Below the pieces are notes generated by a model. It saw nothing but the letters and a program-made list of their open reading frames with translations. It was not told the origin of the DNA and made no database searches. From the NCBI GenBank assembly GCA_963822405.1, contig CAWGHH010000004.1, positions 70,226-134,225 of the forward strand: a stretch of DNA of 64,000 nt. The letters are read 5' to 3'. This stretch comes from Candidatus Uhrbacteria bacterium (GTDB taxonomy: Bacteria; Patescibacteriota; Patescibacteriia; UBA9934). The position numbers and the translations under genes are program-made. Positions 14,526 through 56,122 of the stretch are shown one piece after another (within the stretch, counting starts at the first letter, position 1; each line of letters begins with the position of its first letter).

Positions 14526-14602
14526 GGGTAATGAGACATTATTCCCAAAAATTTGAGTCGGATTACCTCCTAAAAATTTTTAGAAACAATGTCTCATTAC
14601 CC
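14526..14602. repeat. Family C hairpin between convergent rsmB-like gene and 14666 ORF
   Basis: Arms GGGTAATGAGACATT / AATGTCTCATTACCC around AAATTTGAGTCGGATTACCTCCTAAAAATTT. Confidence 0.75.
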
Positions 14603-19442: not shown

Positions 19443-19470
19443 ATTAGGCCAAGTATAGCAAACTCTGAGT

Positions 19471-21614: not shown

Positions 21615-21653
21615 GCCCCCCCCCTCGCGCGCCTGCGCGGGGGTCTTTTTTTA
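21615..21653. terminator. Rho-independent terminator after the lipoprotein gene
   Basis: GC-rich hairpin ccccTCGCGCgccTGCGCGgggg followed by tcttttttt. Confidence 0.6.
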
Positions 21654-21748: not shown

Positions 21749-22261
21749 ATGAGTTTTCCCAATAGAACATTCAGGCTCGTCTGGAGCGTTTGTCTATTAA
21801 TCGGACTTTCATTTTCCGGTCTTTTAATTGCGCGCGCTACTACCCCAAATCCAGGACACGCTTGGTCAGGAGTTGGTGACGGACTTTTTGCTACTACGGG
21901 TCCAACTGTGCTTCGCACTTTTACCTTCCCGGATGCTGACGCCACCATCCTGACTTCGCTTACAACAGACTTTGGTGGTGCAAACTCAACCATGACCGTT
22001 TGTAACACGGCCACTTGTGACACTCTTTCTCTAGCCACGAACACTGATGCCGACACTGTTTCAATTGGCGATTCCTTAGACACTCTCAACTTTGCCGGCA
22101 CGACGGTTGCCACAACACTCACTACAACGAGCAGTGCTACTTTCGCTTCATCAACCACAAATAGCGACATACTGGCAATTAAGCCTCAATCTGGTACAGC
22201 TACAGCAACCTACACCGGAACAATCACTTCCGCGGATCTGGCGACTACTAATCGTACTTGA
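21749..22261 (+). CDS. Giant surface protein, N-terminal segment with signal peptide, ended by an in-frame TGA
   Basis: Signal peptide MSFPNRTFRLVWSVCLLIGLSFSGLLIARA. Sequence continues in the same frame after TGA 22259-22261 into the next segment. Confidence 0.7.
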   Translation: MSFPNRTFRLVWSVCLLIGLSFSGLLIARATTPNPGHAWSGVGDGLFATTGPTVLRTFTFPDADATILTSLTTDFGGANSTMTVCNTATCDTLSLATNTDADTVSIGDSLDTLNFAGTTVATTLTTTSSATFASSTTNSDILAIKPQSGTATATYTGTITSADLATTNRT

Positions 22262-24574
22262 ACCTTCCCAGATGCCACCGGTACAATCGCGCTGACCTCT
22301 GATCTCACATCTTCCGGCGGTTGGACAGATGGCGGAACGGACGTGCTCTTAACGACCTCGACGGATAACGTCGGCATAGGTGGCGCTTCTCTCGGCAAGT
22401 TATCAGTTGATGGCGACACTGACGAAATCCAACTCCTCATCCAAGGCAACGGAACGCAAACATCTAATCTCGCTGTCTTCGAAAATAGTTCCGGAACTGA
22501 TCTCGTGACCATCTCCAATACTGGACTACTCACTTCAAACTCATGGTCAGACAACACAAACACCATTTCTACATTTGGCGGGCGAACAACTTTTAGAAAA
22601 GCTTCGGCCGGAGTTACAGAATTTGTAGTTAGTCCGAGTGGATCACAAGCATATGACACTGCTGTGTTGAAAATTTCCGGCAGTGACTATGGCGCAGACC
22701 AAACAAACAATTGGGGTATGCTGTTTGATAACTTTGGCTCAAACGGAGCTACCGGATTCACTCTTTCAAACATGGCCAATGCCGGATTATTAACAATGTC
22801 TAATAGCGGAAGTACAACAGGCTATCATGACTTCGTTCTTGGTATTCAAAATGGAACAGGTGCCGAGTCAGCAGTAGTAGAAGGCATTCGTCTTGATTCA
22901 GCGGCTACACCAGCAGTAGACTTTTTCGTCGACAAAGTCATCATCACCTCTGGCACGGGAAACATTTCAACAACTGGTGACATCGCGGTAAACGGCGGAG
23001 ATGTAACCTCGACCAGCACTTTGAACCTAACATCAGCAACCTCAAGTGCGATCACCCTTGATTCTGGTACGACAGGTACGATCAACATCGGTACTGGAGC
23101 CTCCGGCAAGTCGATCAACATCGGCACGGACAACAGCAACGCCGATACGATTGGAATTGGTTCGGCTTTAGATACTTTGAGTATTGCCGCTACCACTTTT
23201 ACTACAACACTCACCACAACGAGCAGCGCCGCTTTTGCATCATCGACTACAAACAGTGACGTTATCGCCATTAAACCACAATCCGGCACAGCTACCACAA
23301 CCTATACTGGAACGATCACTTCAGCTGATCTTACAGCTGCCCGAACCTGGACATTGCCAGATGCCACCGGAACAATCGCGCTTACATCCGACATCGCTGG
23401 AGCCTTTGGCTGGACGGATGGCGGAACAGATGTAACGCTCACAACCTCTACAGATAATGTCGGAATCGGTGGCGCGTCACTCGGCAAACTATCAGTTGAC
23501 GGTGACACGGACGAGATCCAATTGTTAGTCCAAGGCAACGGAACGCAAACTTCTAATCTCGCTGTCTTCGAGAATAGTTCCGGCACGGATCTTGTCACCA
23601 TCTCAAATGCCGGCTTGCTCACCTCGAACTCATGGTCAGACAATACAAACACCATTTCTACTTTCGGTGGTCGCACAACCTTCAGAAAAGCTTCAGCTGG
23701 AGTAACGGAGTTTGTAGTCAGCCCAAGCGGAACACAGAGCTGGGACACTGCGGTACTAAAAATATCTGGAAGTGACTATGGCGCAGATCAAACAAACCAA
23801 TGGGGAATGCTTTTTGATAACTTCGGCTCAAGTGGAGCTGGTGGTTTTAGCCTTACCAACATGGCTTATGCGGGATTATTAACCATGTCCAACAGCGGAG
23901 GCACCACCGGCTACCATGACTTGGTCTTTGGTGTGCAAAATGGAACCGGCGCTGAGTCGGCAGTAGTCGAAGGCATCCGTCTTGATTCAGCGGCCACACC
24001 AGCCGTAAATTTCTTCGTCGATAAAGTCATCATCACTTCTGGTACAGGAGACATTTCAACTACTGGCGACATCGCAGTGAATGGAGGCGACGTGACATCA
24101 ACCGGCGCGCTCAATGTGACGTCTGCCACTTCGAACGCCTTGACACTCGATTCCGGCACGACGGGTACGGTCAATATCGGCACAGGAACTTCCGGTAAAA
24201 CAATCAACATCGGCACGAGCAACTCTAACGCTGACACCATCGCAATCGGTTCTGCGCTTGATACTCTCTCAATTTCTTCCTCTGCCTTTGCAGTCTCTAC
24301 CGCGGGCGTTGCCTCTGGACTCACCGGGCTTACCTCAACGGGAAACCTCACCTTCACCGGTGCAAATATTACTGGCGCTTCCCCACTTGTATTTGATGGG
24401 GCCACCGCTGATGCCGTGAAAACAACTTTTGCAATTACAGATCCAATACTCATCAGCAAAATCATAACGTTCCCTAACGCAACAGGCACCGTTGCTCTAA
24501 CGTCAGACTTAGCGATTGCTGGCGGTTCGAGCCGACGGCGGAACAGACATAACGCTCACAACCTCAACCGATAA
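22262..24574 (+). CDS. Giant surface protein, middle segment (same frame as 21749..22261)
   Basis: Continuous homology to tandem ~385-aa modules. Ends through a 1-nt frameshift near 24528. Confidence 0.65.
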   Translation, partial: TFPDATGTIALTSDLTSSGGWTDGGTDVLLTTSTDNVGIGGASLGKLSVDGDTDEIQLLIQGNGTQTSNLAVFENSSGTDLVTISNTGLLTSNSWSDNTNTISTFGGRTTFRKASAGVTEFVVSPSGSQAYDTAVLKISGSDYGADQTNNWGMLFDNFGSNGATGFTLSNMANAGLLTMSNSGSTTGYHDFVLGIQNGTGAESAVVEGIRLDSAATPAVDFFVDKVIITSGTGNISTTGDIAVNGGDVTSTSTLNLTSATSSAITLDSGTTGTINIGTGASGKSINIGTDNSNADTIGIGSALDTLSIAATTFTTTLTTTSSAAFASSTTNSDVIAIKPQSGTATTTYTGTITSADLTAARTWTLPDATGTIALTSDIAGAFGWTDGGTDVTLTTSTDNVGIGGASLGKLSVDGDTDEIQLLVQGNGTQTSNLAVFENSSGTDLVTISNAGLLTSNSWSDNTNTISTFGGRTTFRKASAGVTEFVVSPSGTQSWDTAVLKISGSDYGADQTNQWGMLFDNFGSSGAGGFSLTNMAYAGLLTMSNSGGTTGYHDLVFGVQNGTGAESAVVEGIRLDSAATPAVNFFVDKVIITSGTGDISTTGDIAVNGGDVTSTGALNVTSATSNALTLDSGTTGTVNIGTGTSGKTINIGTSNSNADTIAIGSALDTLSISSSAFAVSTAGVASGLTGLTSTGNLTFTGANITGASPLVFDGATADAVKTTFAITDPILISKIITFPNATGTVALTSDLAIAGGSSRRRNRHNAHNLNR

Positions 24575-25560
24575 CGTCGGGATCGGTGGCGCATCACTTG
24601 GCAAGTTATCCGTCGACGGCGACACTGACGAAATTCAATTGTTGATCCAAGGAAATGCCACCCAAACCTCTAACCTGGCGGTTTTCGAAACAAGCGCGGG
24701 CACTGACCTCTTTGCGATTTCAGGAGCGGGTGAATTAACACAAACCTACACCGGCGCAGGCAACGCATCTTCCATCACGTCCACCACTACTACCAATGGA
24801 TCTAAAGGCTTAATAGTATCAAATACTGGCGTTGTAACAGGGAGGGGTTACGCGGGATTCTTCTCTAAAACTGGAGCATCCACAACCAACGTTGGTCTTT
24901 ATGCCTCCGCCTCCGGGGCAACAGATAATTACGCGGCCATTTTTGACTCTGGGTACGTAGGAATCGGGACCACAAGTCCTATTGCAAAATTGAACATTCA
25001 GGGTTGGTGGGCTCAAACCCTAATGGACGGCGATAGCCTTGCCATAAGAAAACCAAACTACGCCGGTGGCGGATGGGCCAGAACTTTGATGGACTTCCAA
25101 GAATATGACGGCTCAACTCTAACAAGCATGGGAGCATTTGGCTCAAATAATACATTCGTTTACGGATATATTGGAGCTGCGTACAATGACACTACTTTCC
25201 AATGGTACCCAGATAAAAGCGTAGCCTTCAACGGTAGCGTCGGTATCGGCGACACCAGTCCGGCTGCCGCTTTCGTGGTTGGCAACGGAGACCTGTTCCA
25301 AGTAACTTCCGCCGGAATCATTGCCGCCGCCACCGGGATCACTTCAACGGGTAACGTCAACTTCACTGGAGCAATTCTTACCGGCGCTTCGCCGCTCTCT
25401 TTTGACGGTGCAACGGCAGGTGGCATCAAAACGATTTTTGCCATTACCGATCCTACCGTTGCAGATAAAACAATCACCTTCCCAAATGCCACCGGTACTG
25501 TTGCTCTGACTTCCGACCTAGCAATTGCCGGTGGTTGGACAGATGGCGGAACTGACGTAA
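22270..25560 (+). repeat. Three tandem ~1.1 kb near-identical coding modules within the giant surface gene
   Basis: Modules beginning WTDGGTDVTLTTSTDNVGIGGASLGKLSVDGDTDEIQLL recur at ~22320, ~23420 and ~25540 with high DNA identity. Confidence 0.75.
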
Positions 25561-28500
25561 CTCTCACAACCTCAACCGACAACGTCGGAGTAGGTGGTGC
25601 GTCGCTCGGCAAGCTATCAGTGGATGGTGATACTGATGAAATTCAATTTTTGGTACAAGGAAACGCGACTCAAAATGCGAACCTAGCTGTTTTTGAAAAT
25701 AGTTCAGGCACAGATCTAGTTACCATCGACAGCCTGGGAGCAATCGCTCAAACATACGCCGGCACTGCGTCAACCGCCACCACTATCTCCATGACCAACC
25801 TTACTTACGGCAGCGGACTACTAGTCATCGGAAGTGGAGCGGCGATGCAAAGTGGAGGGAATCTATTAAACCTCTCCATGGGTGCAGCCACCCAAGGACA
25901 GGCAATATCTATTGCCACTACCGGTATCTACACAGATACCTCTGGAGTCATAAACATGTTTGCAGGCTCTCTCACAAGTGGCATAGCAGAAAATATCGAA
26001 ATCAGCGGACTCACAACAGGCACAGGAATTAACGTTACTGGCGGCTACTCAATGGCGACTGGAAGCGAACTGTTAAATCTCAACATGGGCGCGGCAACTG
26101 CCGGAAACGGAGCTATCGTTACTACAACTGGCATCTATACAGGAACTGGACTTGCGACGCTCACCGCCAACTCCGCCACGACCGGCACGGGCGAAGCCAT
26201 CTCCATGACAGGTGTTACAACCGGTACCGGCCTTTCTATCACCGGCGGTTCGAGCATGACGACCAACGGCGAGTTGCTTGATCTCACAATGGGAACTGCC
26301 GCAGCTGGCAATGCGATCAATATTACCTCAACTGGAGTCTATACCGGCACTGGCATCATAAAAGCAAATGCTAACATCCTTACCTCGGGAACGCTCCTTG
26401 CCCTTTCTTCACCTAGTTCCGCTCAGTCCACAGCAATATTTCTTGACCTAGCTCAAACGGGGGTAACAACTGGTTTCAGTGGAAATCTAATCAATCTATC
26501 CTCTACCGCAACGACCGGTGCAGCAAAATTCATAAACTTAACAGCCGACTCTTCCACCGTCGGAATTGGAGAAAACATTTCCATGACCGGCCTCACCACA
26601 GGCACCGGTCTTTCTATTACCGGCGGATCAAGCATGACGGCTAATGGAGAACTCATCTACCTAAACACGAGCACAGCTGCTACCGGAAGCGCGATCAACA
26701 TAGACAACGCCGGAACTTACACCGGCACCGGTCTCATAGATCTCTCTGCAACCGGAATGACCACCGGTACCGGACTTGCCATCACCGCGGGTGGATTACT
26801 AGGCACCGGCGGAAGACTCACGGAACTTGACATGGGGACATCGACAGCTGGTAACGCGATCAATATAGACGCTATATCAAATTGGTATGAAGGCACCGGT
26901 CTGATAGCAATGACTGCCCCCTATTTAGATCAGGGCACGGCACTCTCCATAAACTCCGGCACAGTAGGTGACAATATGGCCGATGCTGGAGAACTAATTG
27001 ACCTCCAATTAGGTCCAAGCAGTATTGGACACGGAATAAAAATAACTGATAGTGGCGCATATACAGGAACTGGTCTTATCCTGATAACGGCCAACGGACT
27101 CACTACAGGTAAAGTCATCAACATTCCGCACACCACATCCGTCATTGCGTCCGGTGGTTCATTAATTAATCTTTCATCTACATCCATTGACACCGCTACA
27201 ACATCCGGCTCCCTTCTTAACCTATCCTCCACTGCATCTACAGCCGGCACACAATTCTTACAAACATATTCCGGACTGACCACTGGCATCGGACAAAGCA
27301 TAGTCAGCAACGCACTCACCTCCGGCAAACTTCTTTCATTAGCTTCCTCTTCAACAGGTCAAACAAGCGGAACTTTTCTTGATATCGCTCAAACTGGCGT
27401 TACAACAGGCTATACAGGAAACCTCCTGAACATCAGTTCCTCTAGCACGACGGGTGCTGCAAAATTCTTAAATATCCTCGCCGATGCGTCAACTGTGGGC
27501 ACCGGGATTGAACTCTCAATGGATGCGCTCACCACCGGAAAAGGAATCAACATAACCTCAACGAGCGCAGGACAAACATCAGCCAGTCTTCTGAATATCG
27601 CTCAAACCGGCGTAACTACTGGCTTCACGGGCAGCTTAGTCAACATCAGCTCGTCATCTACCACTGGCGCTGGATCAAAGTTTTTAAACATCGTTGCCGA
27701 TGCGTCAACAGTAGGTACAGGCATAAACCTCTCAATGGCGGCAATGACTTCTGGAGTTGGAATCTCCATCACCGGGAGCGGAGCGAGTATGTCAACTGGA
27801 AAACTAATCGATCTTCAACTGGGGGCCAATACTACAGGCAATGGCCTAGCCATAGTATCATCAGGTGCGTATTCCGGAGCAGGAATTATTTCGATCACCG
27901 CTGATAGCGCTACAAATGGGACAGGAGTTTATATATCGATGACCGGAAGAACGGGAGGTCAGGCACTCGCCATAATAGGAGGTACGGGTATGGCGAATGG
28001 TACATACTTAGCTAATCTTGACCTGGGCGCCGCAACAGCAGGGGCAGGGTTTATTGCACAAACTTCAGGAGCATACACAGGCACCGGACTTGGAATCATT
28101 TCAGCGCCGAACGCAACATCAGGAGAAATGCTCTTAATTTCCAGCAGCGGTCTCACCTCATCTGGACATGCTATTAGCATAGTTTCTGGATCGACCAGCG
28201 GAGGCATCATCATTGCAGGAAACGGCAATACTGCAACATCTATTGACGCGGATGGGCAGGTCAGAATTGGATTCTCTACAACGACTAGCTCTGTAGCGGT
28301 CTGTTCGACGCTCGGTGCCGGAGCCGCTCCGGTCTCCGGAACATCATATTTCCTTCGAGATTGTGCCGGAACAATCACCGCTGACTATGCTGAAATGTAC
28401 CCAGTAGAAACTGGAATTGAGTATGGAGATATTTTAACCACCGGCACAACTCCAATCAGCGTATACGCAGCACTCCCAGACGGTAGTGGCCTAGACCCGA

Positions 28501-30284
28501 CTAACGCTATCGGTAGCGTAACCTCCTTAGTAAAATCTGTCAGCGAATACCAAGCAAACATAATCGGCATCGCCTCAGATAACCACGGCGATTTCTCGAG
28601 TGCCGGTTACAACGTAATGGATGCCGATAACCCCATGCCCGTCGCCCTTAACGGTCGCGTCCCAGTCAAGATTGCGAACACCTCCGCCCCAATCGTCGCC
28701 GGCGACTACATCACCACCTCAAGTGAAGCTGGCAAAGGCATGAAAGCTACACTGTCCGGCGTTGTTATCGGTAAAGCACTCGAATCATGGATCCCTGACA
28801 ACGGCCAAGCGACCGTCATGGTTTTCGTCGAGCAGGGATACAGTACCGGCTCCGGAACCGACCTCGCAGAAATGTATTACTCGACAGATGAAACTATCGC
28901 GAAGGGCGACCTCGTTCGCATTGACGACAACATTCACGCCGGCGTAGCAAAAACAAACGGTACTTACGACGGAACTATCCTCGGCATTGTCGCTAGCCGA
29001 CCAGGTCTCGTGCTTCACGATCCAAAAGAAGCACATGAAGGCACAGCAGTACTCGTTGCTCTTGTTGGTCGAGTGCCTGTCAAAGTAACTACCGCTAACG
29101 GAGATGTTCATGCTGGCGACCTACTTACTTCCTCAGCTATTCCAGGAGTAGCCATGAAAGCTACCGCCGGCGGTCGAGTGATTGGTCAGGCGCTCTCTTC
29201 ATACACAGACGCCGGTGAAGGAATAGTGCAGGTATTTATTAATAATTCTTACGCCCCGACAGAAGTCTTTGCGCAGATAAATGCAGGTGCTTCAGTCACT
29301 AATCCAACTGTCGATCCAGTTGCCCCGGCATTCGTCACCACTGCCGATTTCGCTACAGCTCTCAATGAGATGAACAGTAGTTTGAACGCGCACGTTGCAA
29401 ACGAGCTTATCATCACGGACGCTCTCTCGGCTGGTGTATCTGGTCTTAATGATCGAGTCACCACCCTCGAAACCACCGTTTCCGCCAATGTTTCTGCACT
29501 TGCGGACGTTTCGACCCGTTTAATTGCGCTAGAACAAAATAGCCTAAGCCTTACTAGCCTGAATTTGCCTGGCGCCTTAGAAGTTACTGGTACCACAAAA
29601 CTCACCGGCGGATTACAGGTTGATTCGATAAGTTCTATCGGTTCTTCGATCAACTTCGCATCCGACATCAATCTCATCGGTCGCCCACTCTTTAATAAGG
29701 ACACAGGTGGCTTTGCGATTATCCACACCGGCGACACGTTCGTTCGCGTCACGTTTGAAAAGCCTTATGTCACTACGCCGGTTGTCGATGCATCCGTGAC
29801 TTTCAATGCTATCACTGATGAAATCGTGGCCGCGCAAGCTGAAGCTGATTATTTCGCGAGCGGAATGCACCTCATCGTAACCAGAAAAGACGTAACGGGA
29901 TTCACCATCATGTTGAATGCCCCGGCAACTACAGACCTGTCGTTCAACTGGATCGCGCTTGCCATTACGGATGCGAGAACGGATGAGTCGGTAGGGTCGA
30001 CGCTTGGGTCGACCCCGACACCGGTTGTTGCTGGCGCTACTGATCCTGCGCCTATTGATCCGACACCAATCCCAGATCCAACTCCGGTAGTTGATCCAGC
30101 ACCAATCATTGATCCCGTTCCCGTCGATCCAACACCTGTCGTAGACCCAACCCCAATCATCGATCCAGCCCCAATCGTTGACCCCGCTCCGATCGATCCA
30201 GTATTGGTCGACCCAATACCTGCCCCTATCGATCCGGCTCCGATTATTGATCCCGTGCCAGTCGATCCAGCCCCTGTAATCTAA
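24516..30284 (+). CDS. Giant surface protein, main segment (1922 aa)
   Basis: Continues the module WTDGGTDVTLTTSTDNVG exactly where the previous frame breaks. C-terminal DPxPI(I/V)DP repeats. Family A repeat in-frame at 29993-30020. Confidence 0.7.
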   Translation: MLAVRADGGTDITLTTSTDNVGIGGASLGKLSVDGDTDEIQLLIQGNATQTSNLAVFETSAGTDLFAISGAGELTQTYTGAGNASSITSTTTTNGSKGLIVSNTGVVTGRGYAGFFSKTGASTTNVGLYASASGATDNYAAIFDSGYVGIGTTSPIAKLNIQGWWAQTLMDGDSLAIRKPNYAGGGWARTLMDFQEYDGSTLTSMGAFGSNNTFVYGYIGAAYNDTTFQWYPDKSVAFNGSVGIGDTSPAAAFVVGNGDLFQVTSAGIIAAATGITSTGNVNFTGAILTGASPLSFDGATAGGIKTIFAITDPTVADKTITFPNATGTVALTSDLAIAGGWTDGGTDVTLTTSTDNVGVGGASLGKLSVDGDTDEIQFLVQGNATQNANLAVFENSSGTDLVTIDSLGAIAQTYAGTASTATTISMTNLTYGSGLLVIGSGAAMQSGGNLLNLSMGAATQGQAISIATTGIYTDTSGVINMFAGSLTSGIAENIEISGLTTGTGINVTGGYSMATGSELLNLNMGAATAGNGAIVTTTGIYTGTGLATLTANSATTGTGEAISMTGVTTGTGLSITGGSSMTTNGELLDLTMGTAAAGNAINITSTGVYTGTGIIKANANILTSGTLLALSSPSSAQSTAIFLDLAQTGVTTGFSGNLINLSSTATTGAAKFINLTADSSTVGIGENISMTGLTTGTGLSITGGSSMTANGELIYLNTSTAATGSAINIDNAGTYTGTGLIDLSATGMTTGTGLAITAGGLLGTGGRLTELDMGTSTAGNAINIDAISNWYEGTGLIAMTAPYLDQGTALSINSGTVGDNMADAGELIDLQLGPSSIGHGIKITDSGAYTGTGLILITANGLTTGKVINIPHTTSVIASGGSLINLSSTSIDTATTSGSLLNLSSTASTAGTQFLQTYSGLTTGIGQSIVSNALTSGKLLSLASSSTGQTSGTFLDIAQTGVTTGYTGNLLNISSSSTTGAAKFLNILADASTVGTGIELSMDALTTGKGINITSTSAGQTSASLLNIAQTGVTTGFTGSLVNISSSSTTGAGSKFLNIVADASTVGTGINLSMAAMTSGVGISITGSGASMSTGKLIDLQLGANTTGNGLAIVSSGAYSGAGIISITADSATNGTGVYISMTGRTGGQALAIIGGTGMANGTYLANLDLGAATAGAGFIAQTSGAYTGTGLGIISAPNATSGEMLLISSSGLTSSGHAISIVSGSTSGGIIIAGNGNTATSIDADGQVRIGFSTTTSSVAVCSTLGAGAAPVSGTSYFLRDCAGTITADYAEMYPVETGIEYGDILTTGTTPISVYAALPDGSGLDPTNAIGSVTSLVKSVSEYQANIIGIASDNHGDFSSAGYNVMDADNPMPVALNGRVPVKIANTSAPIVAGDYITTSSEAGKGMKATLSGVVIGKALESWIPDNGQATVMVFVEQGYSTGSGTDLAEMYYSTDETIAKGDLVRIDDNIHAGVAKTNGTYDGTILGIVASRPGLVLHDPKEAHEGTAVLVALVGRVPVKVTTANGDVHAGDLLTSSAIPGVAMKATAGGRVIGQALSSYTDAGEGIVQVFINNSYAPTEVFAQINAGASVTNPTVDPVAPAFVTTADFATALNEMNSSLNAHVANELIITDALSAGVSGLNDRVTTLETTVSANVSALADVSTRLIALEQNSLSLTSLNLPGALEVTGTTKLTGGLQVDSISSIGSSINFASDINLIGRPLFNKDTGGFAIIHTGDTFVRVTFEKPYVTTPVVDASVTFNAITDEIVAAQAEADYFASGMHLIVTRKDVTGFTIMLNAPATTDLSFNWIALAITDARTDESVGSTLGSTPTPVVAGATDPAPIDPTPIPDPTPVVDPAPIIDPVPVDPTPVVDPTPIIDPAPIVDPAPIDPVLVDPIPAPIDPAPIIDPVPVDPAPVI
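29993..30020. repeat. Family A element inside giant surface gene, in-frame (encodes GSTLGSTPTP)
   Basis: GGGTCGACgcttGGGTCGACCCC. Confidence 0.8.
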
Positions 30285-30307: not shown

Positions 30308-30814
30308 GTGGTAGCATTATGCAGTATGAAAACAATTTCAAAGGCTAAGCCTGACTCTATGAACAAACTCACGGTCATCGGTCTCCTTATATTTGCCCTG
30401 GCATCCGTAGGCGGAAACGTTTTTCTTGGAGTGAAGTATTTCTCCGCACCAAAAGTAATCAGCGTGCTTGATGAAAATCAAAAAATTATTGCTGACGTGG
30501 GTAAACTCATGGAACTACCAACTGACGAGTTGCCGACTGTAGCTAAAGTCGACGATCCGCAGCAACTCATAGATCAAGGCGTGTTCACTAAAGTTCAAAA
30601 AGATGACACGGTGCTTATTTATCCAAAAGCTAAGCGAGCTATTCTTTACCGCCCAAGCACCAATAAAATTATCGAGGTGGCCACCGTGAATATCACTGAT
30701 ACACCACCAGCGGCTACGAACGGGTCGACGCTTGGGTCGACCCCAACGCCAACGACGCCACCGGCTCCCGCGCCAATCCCGGCACCTGCCCCAACACCCA
30801 CCCCTACGCCGTAG
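30308..30814 (+). CDS. Membrane-anchored protein, paralog of the N-terminal domain of 47241..47933
   Basis: TM helix, then LPTDE…ILYRPSTNKIIEVATVNIT aligning to the LPTDE…ILYRPSTDQIIQVASINVS domain of 47241..47933. Pro/Thr-rich tail. Family A repeat in-frame. Confidence 0.6.
   Translation: MVALCSMKTISKAKPDSMNKLTVIGLLIFALASVGGNVFLGVKYFSAPKVISVLDENQKIIADVGKLMELPTDELPTVAKVDDPQQLIDQGVFTKVQKDDTVLIYPKAKRAILYRPSTNKIIEVATVNITDTPPAATNGSTLGSTPTPTTPPAPAPIPAPAPTPTPTP
30719..30748. repeat. Family A element inside 30308..30814, in-frame (encodes GSTLGSTPTP)
   Basis: Identical 23-nt core to the copy at 29993. Confidence 0.8.
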
Positions 30815-30823
30815 GCCCTTCTG

Positions 30824-31831
30824 GTGTACGGGCTTGGCGCCGCCAAGCCCTTACGTATGATTACATCCAAACCAATCATTCTCTACGCGGCATTGATAGG
30901 CCTTCTTTTTGGCATGCCTTTTCAAGCGCTCGCCGGCACTCTCTCTTGCTCGGTAACAACCTCATGCCCAACGGGCACTGTGCTTTACCGCCTTTATGAT
31001 CCGAACGGCAATCACGCCGAGATGCCCAGCCAATCACTCTATACATATATGGTGTGCTGCACCGGCGTCGCTGGCCTGGGCAATAGCTGTGCTACTGGCG
31101 TGAACGCAGTTGTCGTCAAACTTTCGAGCACAACAAATGCACACATAGAACAAAACTCCCAGTCCAACTATTCCGGTAATGACGCCTGCTTATCAGTCGA
31201 TGCTGGTGGCTCGGTCTCGGTTGGTTATCAAGCCACTAATTGCAGCGGCTACGATACAACCATTGGCTCAATGACAGCGGTAACCAATAGCCACGTTGGG
31301 GATGGCGCCGCCTATGCCGTCAAAATCTGCGCGACCGCCCTACCGCCACAGACATTAACCTTCAACGTCTCAGATAACACGATCGGATTCGGAACACTTT
31401 CCGCAATTGTTCCCAGGTATGCAACGGGAGACGCCCAAGGGTCAGGCGCGGAAGTAGAAGCGCATACCTTAGCGATCAGTACATCAGCAGCAAACGGCTA
31501 CACGCTCACAATTAGAGGCACAACTCTTGCGGACGGTGGGAATGTCATAACCCCGATAGGCGGAACTAACACAGCCCCAATCCCCGGGTCAGAACAGTTC
31601 GGCTTAAGGCTAGTGGCAACTGGTGGATCAGGTACGGTAACTTCCCTGTATGGAGCTTCAGGATTTGCTTTCAATGCCACTGACTCTACTACCATCCAAG
31701 TAGCCACAGAGAATCCTGGAGATGAAGTGACCACCACATACTCAGCACGCTATCTTGCAAACATTACAAACACCACACAACCTGGAAGTTACGCAGCCAC
31801 ACTCACCTATATAGTAACGGGATCATTTTAA
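30824..31831 (+). CDS. Secreted Cys-rich beta-protein, paralog of 31945..33075
   Basis: Signal peptide. Shared C-terminal domain TLTFNVSDNTIGFGTL … YxxTLxYIxTGxF. Confidence 0.6.
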   Translation: MYGLGAAKPLRMITSKPIILYAALIGLLFGMPFQALAGTLSCSVTTSCPTGTVLYRLYDPNGNHAEMPSQSLYTYMVCCTGVAGLGNSCATGVNAVVVKLSSTTNAHIEQNSQSNYSGNDACLSVDAGGSVSVGYQATNCSGYDTTIGSMTAVTNSHVGDGAAYAVKICATALPPQTLTFNVSDNTIGFGTLSAIVPRYATGDAQGSGAEVEAHTLAISTSAANGYTLTIRGTTLADGGNVITPIGGTNTAPIPGSEQFGLRLVATGGSGTVTSLYGASGFAFNATDSTTIQVATENPGDEVTTTYSARYLANITNTTQPGSYAATLTYIVTGSF

Positions 31832-31880
31832 TTTTTTCCGTACGTATCGTAAGAATGTTATAAACAACCCGCCTTATATT

Positions 31881-31912
31881 TTACTAACATAAATTATTTG
31901 AGTGCTATAATG
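31881..31912 (+). promoter_or_regulatory. Candidate sigma70 promoter with extended -10 (TGcTATAAT)
   Basis: TG-n-TATAAT at 31904-31912 in an AT-rich intergenic region about 30 nt upstream of the 31945 ATG. Confidence 0.35.
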
Positions 31913-31944
31913 CTAAGTATTAATTACCAGGATACAATATTGAT

Positions 31945-33075
31945 ATGCGCACACCGTCATTTAAAAAAAGTTTTAGGTCTGGTGTCAGCCTTATAGTGGC
32001 GACTACCGCCATGATCGCCGGACCGCTTCTCCAGATTGGCGCACTTACTCAATACGCACACGCCGCTACCCTCACCACAATGTCAGATACCATGACTGAT
32101 CAGGCTCCATCAGCAGAATCAACCCATACGATCAAATGGACAACGGCCGGCCAAAACGTAACCGGAGACACTGTGATTATTGATTTCGTTGCGGCAGACT
32201 TCGTTCCCTCGGGAACATGGGCTACTACGGACTTCGCCCTTACTGACATTGGCGGGGGTCGCACAGCTACCGCTCCTGTATCTGTTGGCACTTACCTAAT
32301 CCCAGGAACATGTTCCTCCGGCGCAACTAATTATATTGTTGATGTTGATGCCACGAGCGGTTCATTCCGCATCACATTTTGTGCCGGCTGGACCGCAAGC
32401 ACGGCCGCTAACCTAACCACCTTCGTGATCGATGCCGATGCTCTGGCGACCGGCGGTATCATGACAAACAGTGCATCGAACGTTGAATCATCAGTAGTGA
32501 ACATTGCCTACGCTACTTCCAACTCAGACAGTGGTATGTTGGCCATCGTCGTTGAATCACTGGCAAACGTAAACATCACTGCCACGGCTGCCGTTGGACC
32601 AACACTCACTTTTAACGTCAGCGACAACACAATTGGCTTTGGAACGCTAAGTTCAGTGGCCGCTAGATACGCTTCGCCTGATACGCTTGGAAGTGCCCTC
32701 TCCACAACCGTCGCGCACACATTCTACGTTGATACTAACGCGACCGGCGGATATATTGTCACATTCAAAGGGGCTACACTAACATCCGGTGGTAACACCA
32801 TCACTGCGATCGGCAGTTCGAACACCGCATCCACCCCAGGAACAGAACAGTTCGGACTGCGGGCTACGGTAGCCAGCGGTAGCGGAACAGTAACGGCTCC
32901 GTATGCAGCGGCTGGATTTGCCTTCACGGCAGGTACCACACAACCAGTAGCGTCATACACCGGAGTTGATGCAGGCACTACTTTTAACGCCATTTATCTG
33001 GCCAACATCACCGGTGCCACGGAAGCCGGTGCTTACTCAACAACCTTGAAATACATTGCTACCGGAACTTTTTAA
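31945..33075 (+). CDS. Secreted beta-protein, paralog of 30824..31831
   Basis: Signal peptide. Same C-terminal domain as the 30824..31831 gene. Confidence 0.6.
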   Translation: MRTPSFKKSFRSGVSLIVATTAMIAGPLLQIGALTQYAHAATLTTMSDTMTDQAPSAESTHTIKWTTAGQNVTGDTVIIDFVAADFVPSGTWATTDFALTDIGGGRTATAPVSVGTYLIPGTCSSGATNYIVDVDATSGSFRITFCAGWTASTAANLTTFVIDADALATGGIMTNSASNVESSVVNIAYATSNSDSGMLAIVVESLANVNITATAAVGPTLTFNVSDNTIGFGTLSSVAARYASPDTLGSALSTTVAHTFYVDTNATGGYIVTFKGATLTSGGNTITAIGSSNTASTPGTEQFGLRATVASGSGTVTAPYAAAGFAFTAGTTQPVASYTGVDAGTTFNAIYLANITGATEAGAYSTTLKYIATGTF

Positions 33076-33088
33076 GCAATTAACTGAA

Positions 33089-33118
33089 AATACCGCCGAA
33101 AAGGCGGTATTTTTTATA
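33089..33118 (+). terminator. Rho-independent terminator
   Basis: ATACCGCCgaaaaGGCGGTAT followed by TTTTTTAT. Confidence 0.7.
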
Positions 33119-33184
33119 CACAGAATTTCACAAATTCATCATAGACACGAGCCGTCATACCTGAGAAAATGCAACTTAGAACAT

Positions 33185-34177
33185 ATGAAATACCTGTCTC
33201 TCAGCTTTCTCGGTGCGTTACTCGGCCTCTGTCTGTCAGTACAAAGCGCATTCGCAATTACCGTATCTCCAGTGAAAATAGAGGTGTCTGGGGATCCTGG
33301 ACATGCAGTTACCGGAGAACTAGAGCTGTTCAACGGCGAAAAAAATGCCGTAACTCTCTACTCATCTTTTGAAAAATTTGAAGCCCAAGGAGAAACCGGC
33401 AACCCTGTCTTCACCCCCGGAACGGAAGATCTTAGTACGTGGATTCAAGTCACTCCCAGTATCACTCTCCAGCCGATGGACCGAGTAAAGCTCCCCTTCC
33501 GTATCACCATCCCGGCTGACGCCACCCCAGGCGGACACTTTGCAGCAATATTCTGGAATAATGCGCCACCAACTGACTTACAGAATAGCGAGGTGAGAGT
33601 CGGTTCTAAAATTGGCATATTAGTCTTACTGAAAGTTTCCGGGGAAGTAACTGAATCTGGTAATTTCATTGGATTTGGCACTGAAAATGATCAAACATTT
33701 TTCACCTCGCCTCCAGTAAATTTCTGGTATCGATTTCAAAATGCCGGTTCAGATCGGGTGAAACCAACTGGAACTATTCTTATCAAGAATACTTTCGGCC
33801 TAAAGGCTACTGAATTCAACGCTAACCCAACAGATGGCAACGTGCTACCGCAAAGCATTCGTCGATTAACAGCTTCGTGGCTAGAAAAAGATCACTGGGA
33901 TAATGTAGTAAAAATACCAGACGATAAAAGCTTTCTATCGCTCGCGTCCTACGAATTACAGCATTTTCATTTCGGTCGCTTTACCGCCCACCTCAATCTT
34001 GAGTATGGCACCGAAGGAAAGATAGCTTACGCAAAAGTCTCTTTCCTGATGATTCCATGGCATGCGCTCATCATAGTCATTCCCACGCTCTTCATCATCT
34101 TTATTCTTGGTATAATCTTCTTGAAGCGGTATAACCGTTGGATTATTCGCCAAGCAAATGCGAAAACGCAGGGTTAA
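33185..34177 (+). CDS. DUF916 (CscA)-like cell-surface protein with C-terminal TM anchor
   Basis: Signal peptide MKYLSLSFLGALLGLCLSVQSAFA. ITVSPVKIEVS…LPFRITIPADATPGGHFAAIFW pattern resembling DUF916. C-terminal hydrophobic helix plus basic tail. Confidence 0.5.
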   Translation: MKYLSLSFLGALLGLCLSVQSAFAITVSPVKIEVSGDPGHAVTGELELFNGEKNAVTLYSSFEKFEAQGETGNPVFTPGTEDLSTWIQVTPSITLQPMDRVKLPFRITIPADATPGGHFAAIFWNNAPPTDLQNSEVRVGSKIGILVLLKVSGEVTESGNFIGFGTENDQTFFTSPPVNFWYRFQNAGSDRVKPTGTILIKNTFGLKATEFNANPTDGNVLPQSIRRLTASWLEKDHWDNVVKIPDDKSFLSLASYELQHFHFGRFTAHLNLEYGTEGKIAYAKVSFLMIPWHALIIVIPTLFIIFILGIIFLKRYNRWIIRQANAKTQG

Positions 34178-35228
34178 TCACAAGCATAAAGGACTTCTCG
34201 TCATCGCTCTCGCCGCCTTATTATTAGCGGCGGGAGTTTGGCATCTTGTCGAGTTAACCCGCGCTGATCCACCACCAGTCGAAATAGATGTCACAATTTC
34301 AACTATGGTTCTTGGCTGCGGCGACGGCATAGTCGAGCTAGGCGAAGATTGTGACGGAACAGAGATGAACGGACACACCTGCGCAACAGAGGGCTTCTTA
34401 TACGGCTCTATCAGCTGTCAGGCTAGTTGCGTAGTCCAAACCTCAGCCTGCACTATGGCCACACCAAGTGGAGGAGGTTCTACACCAGTCGTCCCGGTCT
34501 CCTCGACCAAAGAAATATTTACGGGTTACGCATCTCCGGAAAGTACCGTAAACATCTTTAAAGATGGTATTGTCGTCGCTACCGTTACAACAGATGCAAC
34601 CGGAGTATTTTTCGCCCAAATCAATAATGTGACAAATGGTAATTACATATTCGGTTTTCTAGCGACTGATGCTTCCGGCAACGCTTCTGCCTTTTCTACC
34701 CTAAATATTACGGCCAGTGGAGGAATTGCTACGAATGTAGATATGCTACTTTCGCCAATAATGGTTCCGATGATATCGCCTGGGACAACCGGAAATTCAG
34801 TCATGATGTCAGGCAGTACCGCTCCCAATGCTAGTGTAAAAGTATCGCTGTATTCACCGCTAGGAATATCGCTATCGAATCAGACCGTGTCAGCCGATGA
34901 CCAGGGGCTCTACATGGCAATGTTCGATGCATCTTTGTTAACTACGGATGGAGTCTATACAGATATTGATCAAGCATCACTGGGCACACTAACTAGCGAC
35001 TTCAGTCTCCCTGGCCTATTTACCGTTGGTGCCCCTGTCCCTCTCTACATGCCCGGTGACTATGACGAAAACTTGAGAGTAAATTTGGTCGACTTTTCGA
35101 TTGCCATGTACTGGTACAAATGGCCACTAACCGACGCTTTCAAAATTCTTGAACTTCGACACGGCAATGGAGACGGTCTCTTGAACTTGATCGACATCAG
35201 CATTATGGCTTACTGGTGGACTGGATAA
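34158..35228 (+). CDS. Secreted protein with C-terminal dockerin-like repeat pair
   Basis: N-terminal TM/signal. C-terminus has two EF-hand-like dockerin repeats (DENLRVNLVDFSIAMYWY / GNGDGLLNLIDISIMAYWW). Confidence 0.5.
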   Translation: MRKRRVNHKHKGLLVIALAALLLAAGVWHLVELTRADPPPVEIDVTISTMVLGCGDGIVELGEDCDGTEMNGHTCATEGFLYGSISCQASCVVQTSACTMATPSGGGSTPVVPVSSTKEIFTGYASPESTVNIFKDGIVVATVTTDATGVFFAQINNVTNGNYIFGFLATDASGNASAFSTLNITASGGIATNVDMLLSPIMVPMISPGTTGNSVMMSGSTAPNASVKVSLYSPLGISLSNQTVSADDQGLYMAMFDASLLTTDGVYTDIDQASLGTLTSDFSLPGLFTVGAPVPLYMPGDYDENLRVNLVDFSIAMYWYKWPLTDAFKILELRHGNGDGLLNLIDISIMAYWWTG

Positions 35229-35232
35229 TTCT

Positions 35233-36141
35233 ATGCACTCCCCTGCAAAAAAAATTATCGTCATCATCGTTTCACTCACCGCTCTTCTGGCGCCGCATTT
35301 ACTTTTCGCTGCCCAGGTTACCGTATTGCCGGGAAGTAAAGCGGTCATTCAAACGGCCGAATTTCAAACTGACGTCACAATCGATACTAATGGCGAATCA
35401 ATTAATGTCTTTTCGGGAAAAATTGTTTTTCCGAGTGATATTGTCGAACTAAAAGAAATTCGAAGTGGCAACTCAATAGTAAATTATTGGGTCGAGGAAC
35501 CAAAAAATGTGAACGGCGAAATCGCCTTCGCCGGCATGACGCCTGGAGGCTACAACGGCAATCACGGGGTAATCTTTTCACTCATCTTCACCGCTACTGC
35601 CCAAGGTCAAGGGAGTATAGTCGTTAAAGACCCACTGTTCCTAAAGAACGACGGCAAAGGAACCTCGGCTAACATCAATATCAGCAATTCGATCCTCACC
35701 GTTCTTGCGCCAGACCAAAGACGGAACATCGTCGTCCCGCCAATTACTGATACAACGCCACCTGAACTCTTCGCCCCGGAAATTTCACGCTCCCCGTCAA
35801 TCTTAAACAATGCTTGGCTACTATTCTTCAGCGCGCAAGACAAAGGATCTGGCATTGGTCACTATGAAATTCAAGAATATCAAAACGGCCTATTCAGCTT
35901 CTTCGCCCCATGGCAGATAGCGTCAAGCCCGTACTTGCTCAAAGATCAATCGGCCAGCAGCCAACTCAATGTTCGTGCAATAGATAAATCGGGAAACATT
36001 CGCACCGTTCATGTCTCGCCCCTTCATGCGCCGGTTTGGTACCTCAATATAATAAATTGGTTCGTTGTTATTGGTATACTGGCGCTGATCGTTACCCTGA
36101 AAACGGTACTATGGCGAAAGCGTGGAAAAATTTCCTCTTAG
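35233..36141 (+). CDS. Cohesin-like domain protein with C-terminal membrane anchor
   Basis: Signal peptide, QVTVLPGSKAVIQTAEFQTDVTIDTNG… cohesin-like beta-sandwich pattern, C-terminal TM helix plus KR tail. Confidence 0.45.
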   Translation: MHSPAKKIIVIIVSLTALLAPHLLFAAQVTVLPGSKAVIQTAEFQTDVTIDTNGESINVFSGKIVFPSDIVELKEIRSGNSIVNYWVEEPKNVNGEIAFAGMTPGGYNGNHGVIFSLIFTATAQGQGSIVVKDPLFLKNDGKGTSANINISNSILTVLAPDQRRNIVVPPITDTTPPELFAPEISRSPSILNNAWLLFFSAQDKGSGIGHYEIQEYQNGLFSFFAPWQIASSPYLLKDQSASSQLNVRAIDKSGNIRTVHVSPLHAPVWYLNIINWFVVIGILALIVTLKTVLWRKRGKISS

Positions 36142-37238
36142 GTTTTACCGCGCTCTTATTTTTCTTGCTCGGCACGTTACCGAATACTAGCCAAGCAGCT
36201 GGCTTCTTGTTTTCGCCGTCATCCGGCACAGGAACTGTCGGCGTTCCGCTAACTGTTACCGCAATCCTGAACACAAACGGCGTCATTGCGAACGCGGCTG
36301 ATGCGTCTATTTCATTTCCGCCTAGCTTACTGAATGTTTCTTCTGTTTCAAAAACTGGCTCCGTCATGGCGCTCTGGATCCTCGATCCTACGTTCTCCAA
36401 CAGCACCGGAGAAATCACTTTCACCGGTGGCACGCCTCGTCCTGGTTTCAGCGGCTCATCGCTCACTCTCGCTACCATCACCTTTATCCCAAAGGCCGCA
36501 GGAACAGCCACCATCTCTTTCACGGGAGTATCCGTCTTATCAGGCGACGGCCTAGCAACTGAGCTCTTAAACAGCCTCGGATCCGCAACATTCGTGATCA
36601 ACGCTGCGCCACCTCCCCCGCCACCACCTCCGCCGGTAGTCGTAGTCCCGCCACCAGCACCACCGCCAGTAATCATTTACGTTCCAGTTCCAGCAGTAAC
36701 TCCGCCAGCTCCGCCACCAGCTCCCCCAGCCCCACCTCCAGAACCCGTAGTCTGTCCACCAACGGGCACGGGCTATGTGCCACCGTCGACAATACCGACC
36801 GAACCACCGATTGCTCCAATAGAAATACCCGCCCCACCTACAGTGGCCGAGTTAGTAAATCTTGTTCCAACCTCAATCCCAGAACTAATTACTACGCCCG
36901 CGCAAATTTCGGCTTCATTTGATAGCGCAGCCACGGCCATGAGCAACATAGTCGGTAAAACAATAACTAGGTTCCTACAACCGGCACCGGTTGCACCAAT
37001 CGTGGACAAACAAGGCAACCTCCAATGTCCAGCCGCCTCAGCTATCACTATAACTCCCCCATCAGATGGTGGTTGGTTAGCATATCTTATTGCCGGACTC
37101 GCCGGTATCATCATCGGCTACCTCCTCAGAGAGTTGATCGAAAAGAAAAAGAAACGCAAAGAGCTTAAAGCCAAACCTACTCAGCCAAAAATCGTTCCGC
37201 CTCCAAAGCCGCCATACATCCCGTTCCCGCCGCGGTAA
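36111..37238 (+). CDS. Cohesin-like domain surface protein with proline-rich stalk and C-terminal TM anchor
   Basis: Start MAKAWKNF. Signal peptide, TVGVPLTVTAILNTNGVIANAADASISF domain, poly-Pro linker, TM helix + KKKKRKELK tail. Confidence 0.5.
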   Translation: MAKAWKNFLLGFTALLFFLLGTLPNTSQAAGFLFSPSSGTGTVGVPLTVTAILNTNGVIANAADASISFPPSLLNVSSVSKTGSVMALWILDPTFSNSTGEITFTGGTPRPGFSGSSLTLATITFIPKAAGTATISFTGVSVLSGDGLATELLNSLGSATFVINAAPPPPPPPPPVVVVPPPAPPPVIIYVPVPAVTPPAPPPAPPAPPPEPVVCPPTGTGYVPPSTIPTEPPIAPIEIPAPPTVAELVNLVPTSIPELITTPAQISASFDSAATAMSNIVGKTITRFLQPAPVAPIVDKQGNLQCPAASAITITPPSDGGWLAYLIAGLAGIIIGYLLRELIEKKKKRKELKAKPTQPKIVPPPKPPYIPFPPR

Positions 37239-38210: not shown

Positions 38211-39086
38211 TCAGCCGGTCATGAGCGACCAGGCGTAGAGGCTGGACGGGTGATCCTGGTAGTCCCAATTGATCATGGCACCGTAGATGCCTTCCCGCGG
38301 ACCGGCCAGGATAAAGCCGGTAACGGTGCGGAAGTCGTTGGAGCCAGGATAGAACCCGCGGAACCACGTACGGCTGTCGGAGTCGGTCTGCAGCGCGACC
38401 AAGCGGAGCTTGATCTCAGCTCCACCCTGGTACGGAAACACTTCCCGCACATCTTCGAGCTTCTCGCGCCGGATGACGGACAAACGCTCTTTGTGAGGTA
38501 CCCGGCTGGTCTGAAGCGCACAGTTCGGAAGTGTAATCGCCGGTTGCCCGGTGATGTAGTGGAGCGAACACGTGTTGTTCGCGAGAGATCCTCGCTGGTC
38601 GAACGGCGTGCTGATCACCTCCTTCCCCGGACCGTTGCGCTGGGCAGGAACGAGAGCATCCCAGGCATAGTCGATCGGCGGTTCTCCCCGATGATCCCAC
38701 ACTGTCACTACGCCATACGGGTACGCCTGCTCCTTCTTCAGGTAGAGAAACCCGCTCACCAGGTTGCGCTGTTCGCTGTAGGACGTGTAGCCCTCAAAGT
38801 GCACCACACCCGCTACTCGGTTCACGCGCACCTTCGTGATGTGCGCGTTGAGCACGGTCCACTGGAAGTCAAACCGTCTCGGCTCCACGGAAGAACGCGT
38901 CATGGGATTCGTGTAGCGCTCCATCTGCGGCGCTGTTGCATGGCGCATGTGCGCAAGGTTGAGGTCAAAGCTCAGCCGCTCCGACACTCCGTCAACATTA
39001 CCGATGAGGGCGAGGAACTCCGCGAAATTCTCCACCGTACGAATAACAGACACACACCCAGCAGCCCGATCAAGAACCTGTGACAT
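38211..39086 (-). CDS. Hypothetical protein (291 aa) in a GC-rich island inserted between trxB and trxA
   Basis: GGAGGT 4 nt upstream of ATG 39084-39086. Elevated GC. Own terminator-like hairpin at 38150-38190. Overlapping plus-strand ORF is Arg-rich and antisense-like. Confidence 0.5.
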   Translation of the reverse strand: MSQVLDRAAGCVSVIRTVENFAEFLALIGNVDGVSERLSFDLNLAHMRHATAPQMERYTNPMTRSSVEPRRFDFQWTVLNAHITKVRVNRVAGVVHFEGYTSYSEQRNLVSGFLYLKKEQAYPYGVVTVWDHRGEPPIDYAWDALVPAQRNGPGKEVISTPFDQRGSLANNTCSLHYITGQPAITLPNCALQTSRVPHKERLSVIRREKLEDVREVFPYQGGAEIKLRLVALQTDSDSRTWFRGFYPGSNDFRTVTGFILAGPREGIYGAMINWDYQDHPSSLYAWSLMTG

Positions 39087-45981: not shown

Positions 45982-46068
45982 GACAAAACAAAAGACCAGT
46001 ATTGCCTCGAAATTTGAGTCGGAGTACCTCCTAAAAATTTCTCGACAACACTGGTCTTTTGTTTTGTC
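45982..46068. repeat. Family C hairpin between convergent HU gene and 46074 ORF
   Basis: 23-bp perfect arms GACAAAACAAAAGACCAGTATTG / CAACACTGGTCTTTTGTTTTGTC around AAATTTGAGTCGGAGTACCTCCTAAAAATTT. Confidence 0.75.
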
Positions 46069-56037: not shown

Positions 56038-56122
56038 CAAAAAAACAAAAACCAGCGTTGTCGAGAAAATGTTAGGAGGTACTCCGACTCAAATTTCGAG
56101 ACAATACTGGTCTTTTGTTTTT
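56038..56122. repeat. Family C hairpin (inverted orientation) downstream of proS
   Basis: Near-identical arms to the 45982 copy, around AAATTTGAGTCGGAGTACCTCCTAACATTTT on the minus strand. Confidence 0.7.

Follow-up and report, generated by a model that had tools for sequence, protein, structure and literature searches.

The split gene

The window analysed here is a stretch of 64,000 nucleotides (nt) of a Candidatus Uhrbacteria bacterium (Patescibacteriota; assembly GCA_963822405.1, contig CAWGHH010000004.1, positions 70,226 to 134,225). On its plus strand lies a gene for a very long putative surface protein that is interrupted twice, by an in-frame TGA at 22259-22261 (lesion 1) and by a change of frame at 24527-24531 (lesion 2). 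Three open reading frames (ORFs), 21749..22261, 22262..24574 and 24516..30284, are collinear pieces of one gene of about 2,844 codons, as an earlier note on this DNA had proposed. Piece 1 (21749..22261, 170 codons) ends at the TGA, the only one in a frame that is otherwise open from the ATG at 21749 to 24574. Piece 2 (22262..24526) continues in the same frame and holds two tandem modules of 1,089 bp (about 22100-23188 and 23189-24277) and the start of module 3; past 24526 its frame yields 15 junk codons and then a TAA at 24572-24574. The +1 frame is open from 24513/24516 up to the TAA at 30282-30284, and piece 3 (24531..30284, 1,917 codons plus TAA) runs from modules 3 and 4 through to a Pro-rich tail. 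When joined, the pieces encode a protein of 2,844 aa, with no further stop and no third lesion across 8.5 kb. The signal peptide is carried by the 170-aa N-terminal piece only. A scan for promoters and terminators inside the gene gave nothing above shuffled expectation, and no internal start signal for pieces 2 and 3.

Both breaks are found at Trp codons. In lesion 1 (context cgtactTGAACCttc) the TGA stands where module 2, and likewise the orthologue P0002 introduced below, has the TGG of RTWTLPDATG; this codon is TGG (Trp of RTW-T) in paralogues and orthologues alike. In lesion 2 the frame changes inside GG[W]xDGG, where ggcggtTCGAGccgac stands against ggcggtTGGACagat of the paralogues (module 4), an extra base with substitutions moving the frame by +1. 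Both alignments to the paralogues were present in the earlier note, which also placed the two lesions at the same module position. That claim does not hold: the Trp of RTW-T(F/L)PDATG and the Trp of GGW-TDGG are different residues, about 21 residues apart, and in modules 3 and 4 the first of them is replaced by Ile. What the two lesions have in common is a Trp followed by Thr or Ala (making GGACC at lesion 1; it would make GGACC or GGGCC at lesion 2). The further claim that removal of an extra C would again leave TGA at lesion 2 depends on the alignment chosen. The alignment TGGA-CAGAT / TCGAGCCGAC with module 4 has three substitutions and an inserted G, with Trp changed to TCG; the one used earlier is longer, with four substitutions and an inserted C. 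Compared with a hypothetical TGG-GCC or TGG-ACC ancestor, each takes two events.

Trp codons account for 39% of the possible nonsense transitions of this gene, and that one should fall on TGG is unremarkable. By chance, a frameshift would fall on a Trp codon in about 1% of cases (0.7% of bases). In the sequence around the lesions, neither is associated with a homopolymer, a short tandem repeat or a slippery site. The four paralogous modules share 69-82% DNA identity, the first two forming the 1,089-bp tandem pair, and the longest exact repeat within the gene is 22 nt.

Orthologues and selection

The closest relatives are hypothetical proteins from metagenome-assembled genomes (MAGs) labelled 'Patescibacteria group bacterium', P0002 (2,059 aa, MFA5946465.1) and P0003 (1,479 aa). 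The two related genomes (L003 and L004) share with the window the order leuS, rhodanese, GDH, RsmB, a giant gene on the opposite strand, MgsA and this gene, followed on its 3' side by seven small genes, TrxB, thioredoxin and IF2. By this order P0002 and P0003 are positional orthologues, and both are intact single ORFs. P0002 is 87% identical to the window protein over the first 119 aa, and Trp is found at both lesion sites in P0002, in P0003 and in more distant homologues. Module number varies among the orthologues, whose lengths are 1,479, 2,059 and 2,844 aa. It is because of this synteny and of the collinearity with intact orthologues that we read the locus as one gene, not three.

Selection on the protein sequence has been strong on either side of the lesions. 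The dN/dS ratio is 0.058 between modules 1 and 2, 0.03 between the N-terminus and that of P0002, and 0.13 for the corresponding C-termini. Since dN/dS is low on both sides of the lesions and no third lesion is present, any inactivation would be very recent. A pseudogene would show such collinearity of its pieces with an intact orthologue in the same position; the relaxed selection or accumulating lesions also expected of one were not found.

The genetic code

TGA is a genuine stop in this organism. At least nine long genes of the window end in TGA, including leuS (8757), rnc (58734), both parts of ComEC and both other giant genes; two of the genes do so in start-stop overlaps (ATGA/GTGA). No other gene of the window has an in-frame TGA, and 16 neighbouring genes align to their orthologues as single uninterrupted high-scoring segment pairs. 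Because TGA terminates many genes, codes 4 and 25 are excluded, in agreement with the earlier note, which had relied on leuS and rnc. The only tRNAs found in the 64 kb are Lys-CTT and Arg-TCG; they are also the only matches of an Rfam scan over the whole window. Selenocysteine was considered for lesion 1 and ruled out, the position being Trp in all relatives and Rfam giving no match. Both breaks are non-programmed.

An independent assembly of the same population

The window could be compared with Logan (k-mer) contigs of run ERR12037365, which were found via exact-protein look-ups and tile it at 99.97-100% identity over about 42 kb. The contig covering the start of the gene (L001) has the same TGA at lesion 1 and terminates at 24527, one base before lesion 2, with no repeat of 14 nt or longer there to account for its end. 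The next contig starts at 26903, and the stretch 24528..26902 (plus strand), with no repeat at either end, is absent from every retrieved Logan contig. It is probably a region of read-level heterogeneity. Because the independent contig ends exactly at 24527, support for the window sequence among the reads of ERR12037365 is not uniform from 24528 on, and an allele exists that differs starting with exactly the first lesioned base. The earlier note had named two read-level outcomes as signs of a sequencing or assembly error, TGG at 22259 and no extra base at 24528. The second is borne out by proxy, through the stop of the independent assembly at 24527; at 22259 that assembly reproduces the TGA.

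Other contig ends fall into two groups. Those at 14550/14577, 46024/46026 and 58675 are accounted for by a 31-nt repeated element described below. For those at 10423, 24527, 26903, 38626/38627 and 49431 no repeat accounts. These ends look like unresolved two-allele bubbles, a gap of 1 nt or an overlap of 2 nt being what a single-nucleotide polymorphism (SNP) or a C3/C4 indel would leave. At 38625-38628, within the minus-strand coding sequence 38211..39086, two Logan contigs overlap by just 2 nt. This fits C3/C4 heterogeneity directly 5' of GGACCG, which would frameshift a hypothetical gene.

There are five SNPs between the window and the Logan assembly. Two have the form GGT[C/T]C, at 15300 (Ser/Phe) and at 46696 (second codon position). 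A third, TC[G/A]ACC at 42640, lies in fpg (minus strand), where the Logan contig (L051) has TGA at 42638-42640 for the CGA of the window, a conserved Arg of the VYGRxGxPC zinc finger, so that Fpg is cut to 240 of 271 aa. The remaining two, at 24373 and 38934, are synonymous and unrelated to the motif considered next.

Pattern scans of JGI metagenomes over each lesion, with wildcards allowed, gave 0 matches; exact look-ups of the piece-3 product, of leuS and of one other protein gave no record; and a homology search for fragments or alternative alleles of the 24.4-26.9 kb region gave no near-identical protein.

A GGWCC signal

The change at lesion 1, TG[G>A]ACC, turns GGACC into GAACC, and among 20 Trp codons the one at lesion 1 alone has ACC next, forming GGACC. 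An intact lesion 2 would read TGG-ACC or TGG-GCC, again GGNCC. When the motif is fixed beforehand by lesion 1, two of the five SNPs (15300 and 46696) fall on the 50 inner-C positions present in 42 kb (P = 1.4e-5). The fpg change is of the same G/A-before-ACC type as lesion 1. Four motif-type events, 22260 TG[R]ACC, 15300 and 46696 GGT[Y]C and 42640 TC[R]ACC, fit an RA/TY pattern (R, purine; Y, pyrimidine). Some of the bubble ends also touch GGNCC or forms one base away from it, namely GGCCC in leuS at 10422, GGTCT at 26902 and the C-run by GGACCG at 38626/38627. A narrower motif, GGACCG, was dropped because four such sites assembled cleanly, and DNA cutting at G^GNCC was dropped as a cause of the contig ends because those at 38626/38627 do not fit.

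The motif-type differences all alter a protein (Ser/Phe, Arg/stop, the second codon position at 46696, Trp/stop), and both non-motif SNPs are synonymous. The former, being unfiltered, look like errors, and the latter, being filtered, look like real polymorphism. GGWCC is also under-represented in the window (54 observed vs 76 expected, 0.71), as is GGCC (157 vs 243, 0.65), and TCGA and CCGG are slightly over-represented. The depletion of GGNCC and GGCC suggests restriction-modification pressure or deamination decay. Enzymes of the SinI type 5-methylate the inner C of GGWCC, and hotspots of C>T change at cytosines methylated by restriction-modification systems are established, as they are for Dcm sites in E. 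coli. The 64-kb window yielded no methyltransferase gene.

Effects of methylation on long-read assemblies have been described. In bacterial assemblies from Oxford Nanopore Technologies (ONT) reads, methylation induces ambiguous positions in an RA/TY context within strain-specific extended motifs, and this purine/pyrimidine ambiguity near methylated motifs results in wrong assemblies and SNP-like calls (Lohde et al., 2024, PMC11610573). Such sites may exceed 50% alternative base and survive SNP filters, according to a preprint (Liu et al., 2026, bioRxiv 10.64898/2026.01.14.699587).

Origin of the breaks

The reading that we favour, with a probability of about 0.5, is that the breaks are a data artefact or unresolved heterogeneity, and that the organism, or much of the population, has an intact gene. 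Both breaks would sit on GGNCC sites made by Trp-Thr/Ala codon pairs (TGG-ACC, or TGG-RCC), and a methylated motif, probably GGW5mCC, would disturb long-read base calling there. Lesion 1 would then be a G/A miscall of TGG, and lesion 2 a garbled consensus where reads disagree. We infer here both a technical cause, which requires nanopore reads, and GGWCC methylation. In favour of this reading we count the contig end at 24527 and the other bubble-like ends, the motif association of the SNPs and their effects on proteins, the under-representation of GGWCC and GGCC, the lack of decay in the gene and the unbroken alignment of the 16 neighbouring genes. The likeness to the ONT ambiguity lies in the G/A and C/T changes in R-A/T-Y context within a longer motif (here G[R]ACC / GGT[Y]C), and in two assemblies of one population choosing differently, with SNP-like calls that include false stops. 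The breaks are most likely not fixed features of the organism.

Several observations weigh against an artefact. Lesion 1 is present in both assemblies. At 36 testable GAWCC/GGWTC sites in 12 conserved genes, reversion 'repaired' the sequence toward the orthologue in no case, and lesion 1 would therefore be the sole surviving miscall in the window; of about 54 GGWCC sites in the polished window, it is the only candidate for an error, unlike in the published ONT cases. Lesion 2 combines a transversion with an indel and is no simple R/Y ambiguity, which is a second difference from those cases. About 22 of the 25 covered GGWCC sites are identical in both assemblies. There are two lesions in this gene and none in about 55 others, a distribution that a dead gene under relaxed selection would match. 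Finally, should the reads be Illumina reads, the C>T changes linked to the motif could only be real mutations.

The strongest competitor is a real and very recent null allele, either a pseudogene of recent origin or a set of null alleles that segregate between strains living side by side, which we hold to be a plausible though less probable account. Lesion 1 would be a bottom-strand C>T deamination at the methylated inner C of GGTCC, by which TGG became TGA, lesion 2 a true complex indel in one of at least two strains, and cells with this allele would lack the fibre. The reproduction of the TGA in the independent assembly is in keeping with this account, as are a window consensus without other motif-type errors, the presence of both lesions in one non-essential, fast-evolving gene and the depletion of GGWCC, which fits deamination decay. 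Unpurged deleterious variants are also expected at very young divergence, and at least one other family member, from another MAG, also looks frameshifted. In that MAG (L029:3584-8264), the same N-terminal domain is followed by a TGA after 155 codons, and the ORF overlaps an open frame of 1,473 codons in +1, as a frameshifted giant gene would.

A null allele has its own costs, however. For two of five SNPs to fall on 50 positions, the hotspots would have to exceed background about 100-fold or more. An about equally abundant strain would be needed that carries a nonsense fpg, a frameshifted coding sequence at 38628 and several radical substitutions in 42 kb. The heterogeneity also involves the outer C and neighbours of GGNCC (10422, 26902, 38628), unlike single-base deamination, and relaxed selection and a third lesion in 8.5 kb are both missing. 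The comparison with known 5-methylcytosine (5mC) deamination hotspots (CCWGG in E. coli; GGW5mCC of the SinI/Eco47I type) is similarly divided. The repeated C>T change at the inner C (22260, 15300, 46696) and the depletion of the motif are shared, but GGWCC methylation is putative here, its methyltransferase gene having no counterpart in the window, and the bases around the inner C vary too. The recent pseudogenisation proposed by the earlier note survives in this second place, with collinearity in its favour and the lack of relaxed selection or further lesions against it. With either an artefact or a null allele, the finding is of a familiar kind.

The breaks might also be real and recurrent, methylated GGWCC sites (TGG-ACC) acting as fragile points at which 5mC deamination switches the fibre off in part of the population. 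This would be a hotspot switch independent of repeats, and leakiness of TGA-A or conversion by a sister module could provide the way back. We regard it as unlikely.

Comparably doubtful, and if anything more so, is variation by recombination or gene conversion (in length, in antigenic type or between on and off), with lesion 2 as the edge of a variable segment at 24528-26902. It is exactly this segment that the independent assembly lacks, on the left it begins where the most conserved module core begins, and orthologues vary in module number. Against this, the modules have no exact shared stretch longer than 22 nt, the window contains no silent donor cassette (the gene shares at most 23 nt with the rest), the gene is flanked by neither a recombinase nor inverted repeats, and no variant proteins of this population occur in a collection of 5.8 billion proteins. 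The point TGA of lesion 1 would be irreversible by this route unless converted from module 2. An identity of 12 nt, GGCGGTTCGAGC, between lesion 2 and the GGSSM repeat at 26244 is a match with about 1% chance expectation; it has no extension, and a patch templated from that repeat was ruled out on this ground. The on/off or antigenic variation suggested earlier also finds no simple sequence repeat or slippery site to work through, and the orthologues are without the lesions.

Programmed recoding is very improbable. It would involve readthrough of TGA-A as Trp by a near-cognate tRNA-Trp, followed by a +1 shift at GGT-TCG-A, giving a low level of full-length protein. TGA followed by A is reportedly leaky in E. 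coli, with Trp inserted on readthrough; Trp is also the ancestral residue at lesion 1, and bypass of both breaks restores conserved sequence. However, neither lesion is conserved in the positional orthologues, where P0002 and P0003 as single ORFs have TGG-ACN at the homologous sites, so that the shift site is not conserved. At lesion 2 (GCT GGC GGT TCG AGC), +1 re-pairing is impossible; 24527 has neither a slippery or shift-prone codon nor a Shine-Dalgarno-like stimulator (no AGGAGG upstream), and the A site would not hold a rare or stop codon. No RNA family matched, TGA ends many genes, and the window has no suppressor tRNA.

The least probable cause is an assembly collapse or mis-join in tandem repeats, also raised by the earlier note, for although the gene has four paralogous modules and is broken up in the independent assembly, a longest exact repeat of 22 nt and 69-82% identity are too little to confuse graphs of k>=31 or long reads, lesion 1 lies in unique sequence that is identical in both assemblies, and neither lesion is at a module junction.

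Protein architecture and family

With the breaks bridged, the protein would consist, in order, of a signal peptide, a TPNPGHxW domain, four fibre modules, beta-repeats, two gp12-like autochaperone domains, a coiled coil, an H-lectin-like head and a Pro-rich tail. The start codon and a predicted Sec signal peptide (MSFPNRTFRLVWSVCLLIGLSFSGLLIARA|TT, judged by eye) occupy 21749..21838. The conserved TPNPGHxW domain that follows defines the family and is found across Paceibacteria at the head of proteins 300 to >3,400 aa long; a scan of GTDB representative genomes with this N-terminal domain gave 46 distant family loci in that range of lengths. Among the loci of the scan, a hidden Markov model of the module matches the window, L001 and L003 only. 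Relatives of the last 579 residues are found in >13,000 clusters at 50% identity. Searches of Pfam, NCBIfam, PHROGs and PDB sequences with the three pieces gave no significant family.

Piece 3 holds modules 3 and 4, long Gly/Thr-rich beta-repeats, two domains resembling the Peptidase_G2 IMC, the coiled coil, the lectin-like head and the Pro-rich tail. The two tandem 'D(Y/L)AEMY ... GRVPVKV ... AMKAT' domains (28380..29303, plus strand) are weakly like the phi29 gp12 autochaperone (Peptidase_G2 IMC). Peptidase_G2 (PF11962) matches the window domain with E 8.8e-4 and 19.2 bits, below the cut-off of 25; it matches 9 of 19 family members, the best with 3.5e-5. A profile of the domain searched against the PDB aligns with gp12 residues 689-747 (E 2e-3); it is the start of the tandem domains, G-A-D-L-A-E-M-Y, that weakly matches the autochaperone. 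We would regard the relation to gp12 and Peptidase_G2 as a resemblance only. A coiled coil of about 45 residues is followed by a beta-sandwich head (together 29409..29990, from sequence and model) with a predicted fold like that of H-type lectins. The H-type lectin family PF09458 matches the head with E 0.59, and 14 of 26 homologues match, the best with 2e-4. With an AlphaFold2 (AF2) model of the head (pLDDT 88), the top Foldseek matches were Helix agglutinins, SLL-2 and discoidin II (E ~1e-2, target TM 0.54). The low-complexity C-terminal tail (29991..30281), rich in Pro, has PxxDPxP repeats.

Our best guess is that the protein is a trimeric, fibre-like adhesin. It resembles phi29 gp12 (PDB 3GQH/3SUC/6QZ9; Peptidase_G2, Peptidase_S74) in being fibrous and repetitive and in the alignment of 'G-A-D-L-A-E' to the autochaperone start, but the autochaperone-like domain is duplicated and internal here, not terminal. 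As in phage fibres and the tips of R-type pyocins or tailspikes, a trimeric-type coiled coil precedes the tip, and the beta-sandwich head is like H-type lectins and pyocin tips. Unlike phage appendages, the gene is chromosomal, syntenic beside housekeeping genes in three genomes and without phage genes around it, its product has a Sec signal peptide, and the Pfam and PDB matches are all under curated thresholds. A preprint describes giant surface proteins of the candidate phyla radiation (CPR) and of predatory bacteria (bioRxiv 10.1101/2023.11.21.568195). The present protein is similar in being long, repeat-rich and secreted, in belonging to an ultrasmall presumed episymbiont, in its fast evolution of length and in a plausible role in attachment to host cells. 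It differs in that 2,844 aa is far under the 'giant gene' class of that preprint, and its function here is only deduced.

Surroundings of the gene

The giant gene would start its own transcription unit, given an intrinsic-terminator-like hairpin of the upstream gene at 21622..21653 (plus strand). A poly-C run in this hairpin (21616-21624), C9 in the window against C10 in the Logan contig, is the longest homopolymer of the covered region and lies 125 nt before the ATG. Downstream, the seven small conserved genes (30308..37238, plus strand), in the same order in both related genomes, have no recognisable function apart from one Big_6 Ig-like domain and one weak cohesin-like match among them. They are likely a partner operon of the giant gene, and possibly serve in assembly or anchoring of the fibre.

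Two other very long genes of the window, both on the minus strand, are without a Pfam family: 15480-19760 (1,426 aa), which is syntenic in both related genomes, and 49418-55591 (2,057 aa), 12 nt inside the 3' end of which a Logan contig (L054) ends, at 49431. ComEC is present as two minus-strand ORFs within 6410-8760, one (7318..8760) with DUF4131 and Competence and the other (6410..7321) with the metallo-beta-lactamase domain. They are in different frames and joined by an ATGA stop/start overlap; the split may be natural or a further break of frame.

The 31-nt element, AAATTTGAGTCGGA(T/G)TACCTCCTAAAAATTT, is conserved in four copies in the window, where 0 are expected by chance: 14549-14579 (+), 46010-46040 (+), 56066-56096 (-) and 58672-58702 (-), with a partial copy near 4303. 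Each copy lies about 31-37 nt 3' of a stop codon, in the sense orientation of that gene, and those at 46010 and 58672 are in the loop of longer hairpins with differing stems. The element includes GAUUACCUCCU, a sequence similar to the anti-Shine-Dalgarno 3' end of 16S rRNA.

Implications

Annotation of the locus should give a single gene in place of three proteins, and a pseudogene label is not to be trusted without the reads. Where in-frame stops and frameshifts in MAGs fall on short palindromic motifs, they can be artefacts linked to methylation, and these inflate pseudogene counts in CPR genomes. The motif signal predicts a system for cytosine methylation at GGWCC (or GGNCC) in this organism. 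The gene belongs to a very large, unannotated family of fibre-like surface proteins. Its product is a candidate secreted, phage-fibre-like surface protein, and the members of the family would be good candidates for mediating host attachment of episymbiotic Patescibacteria.

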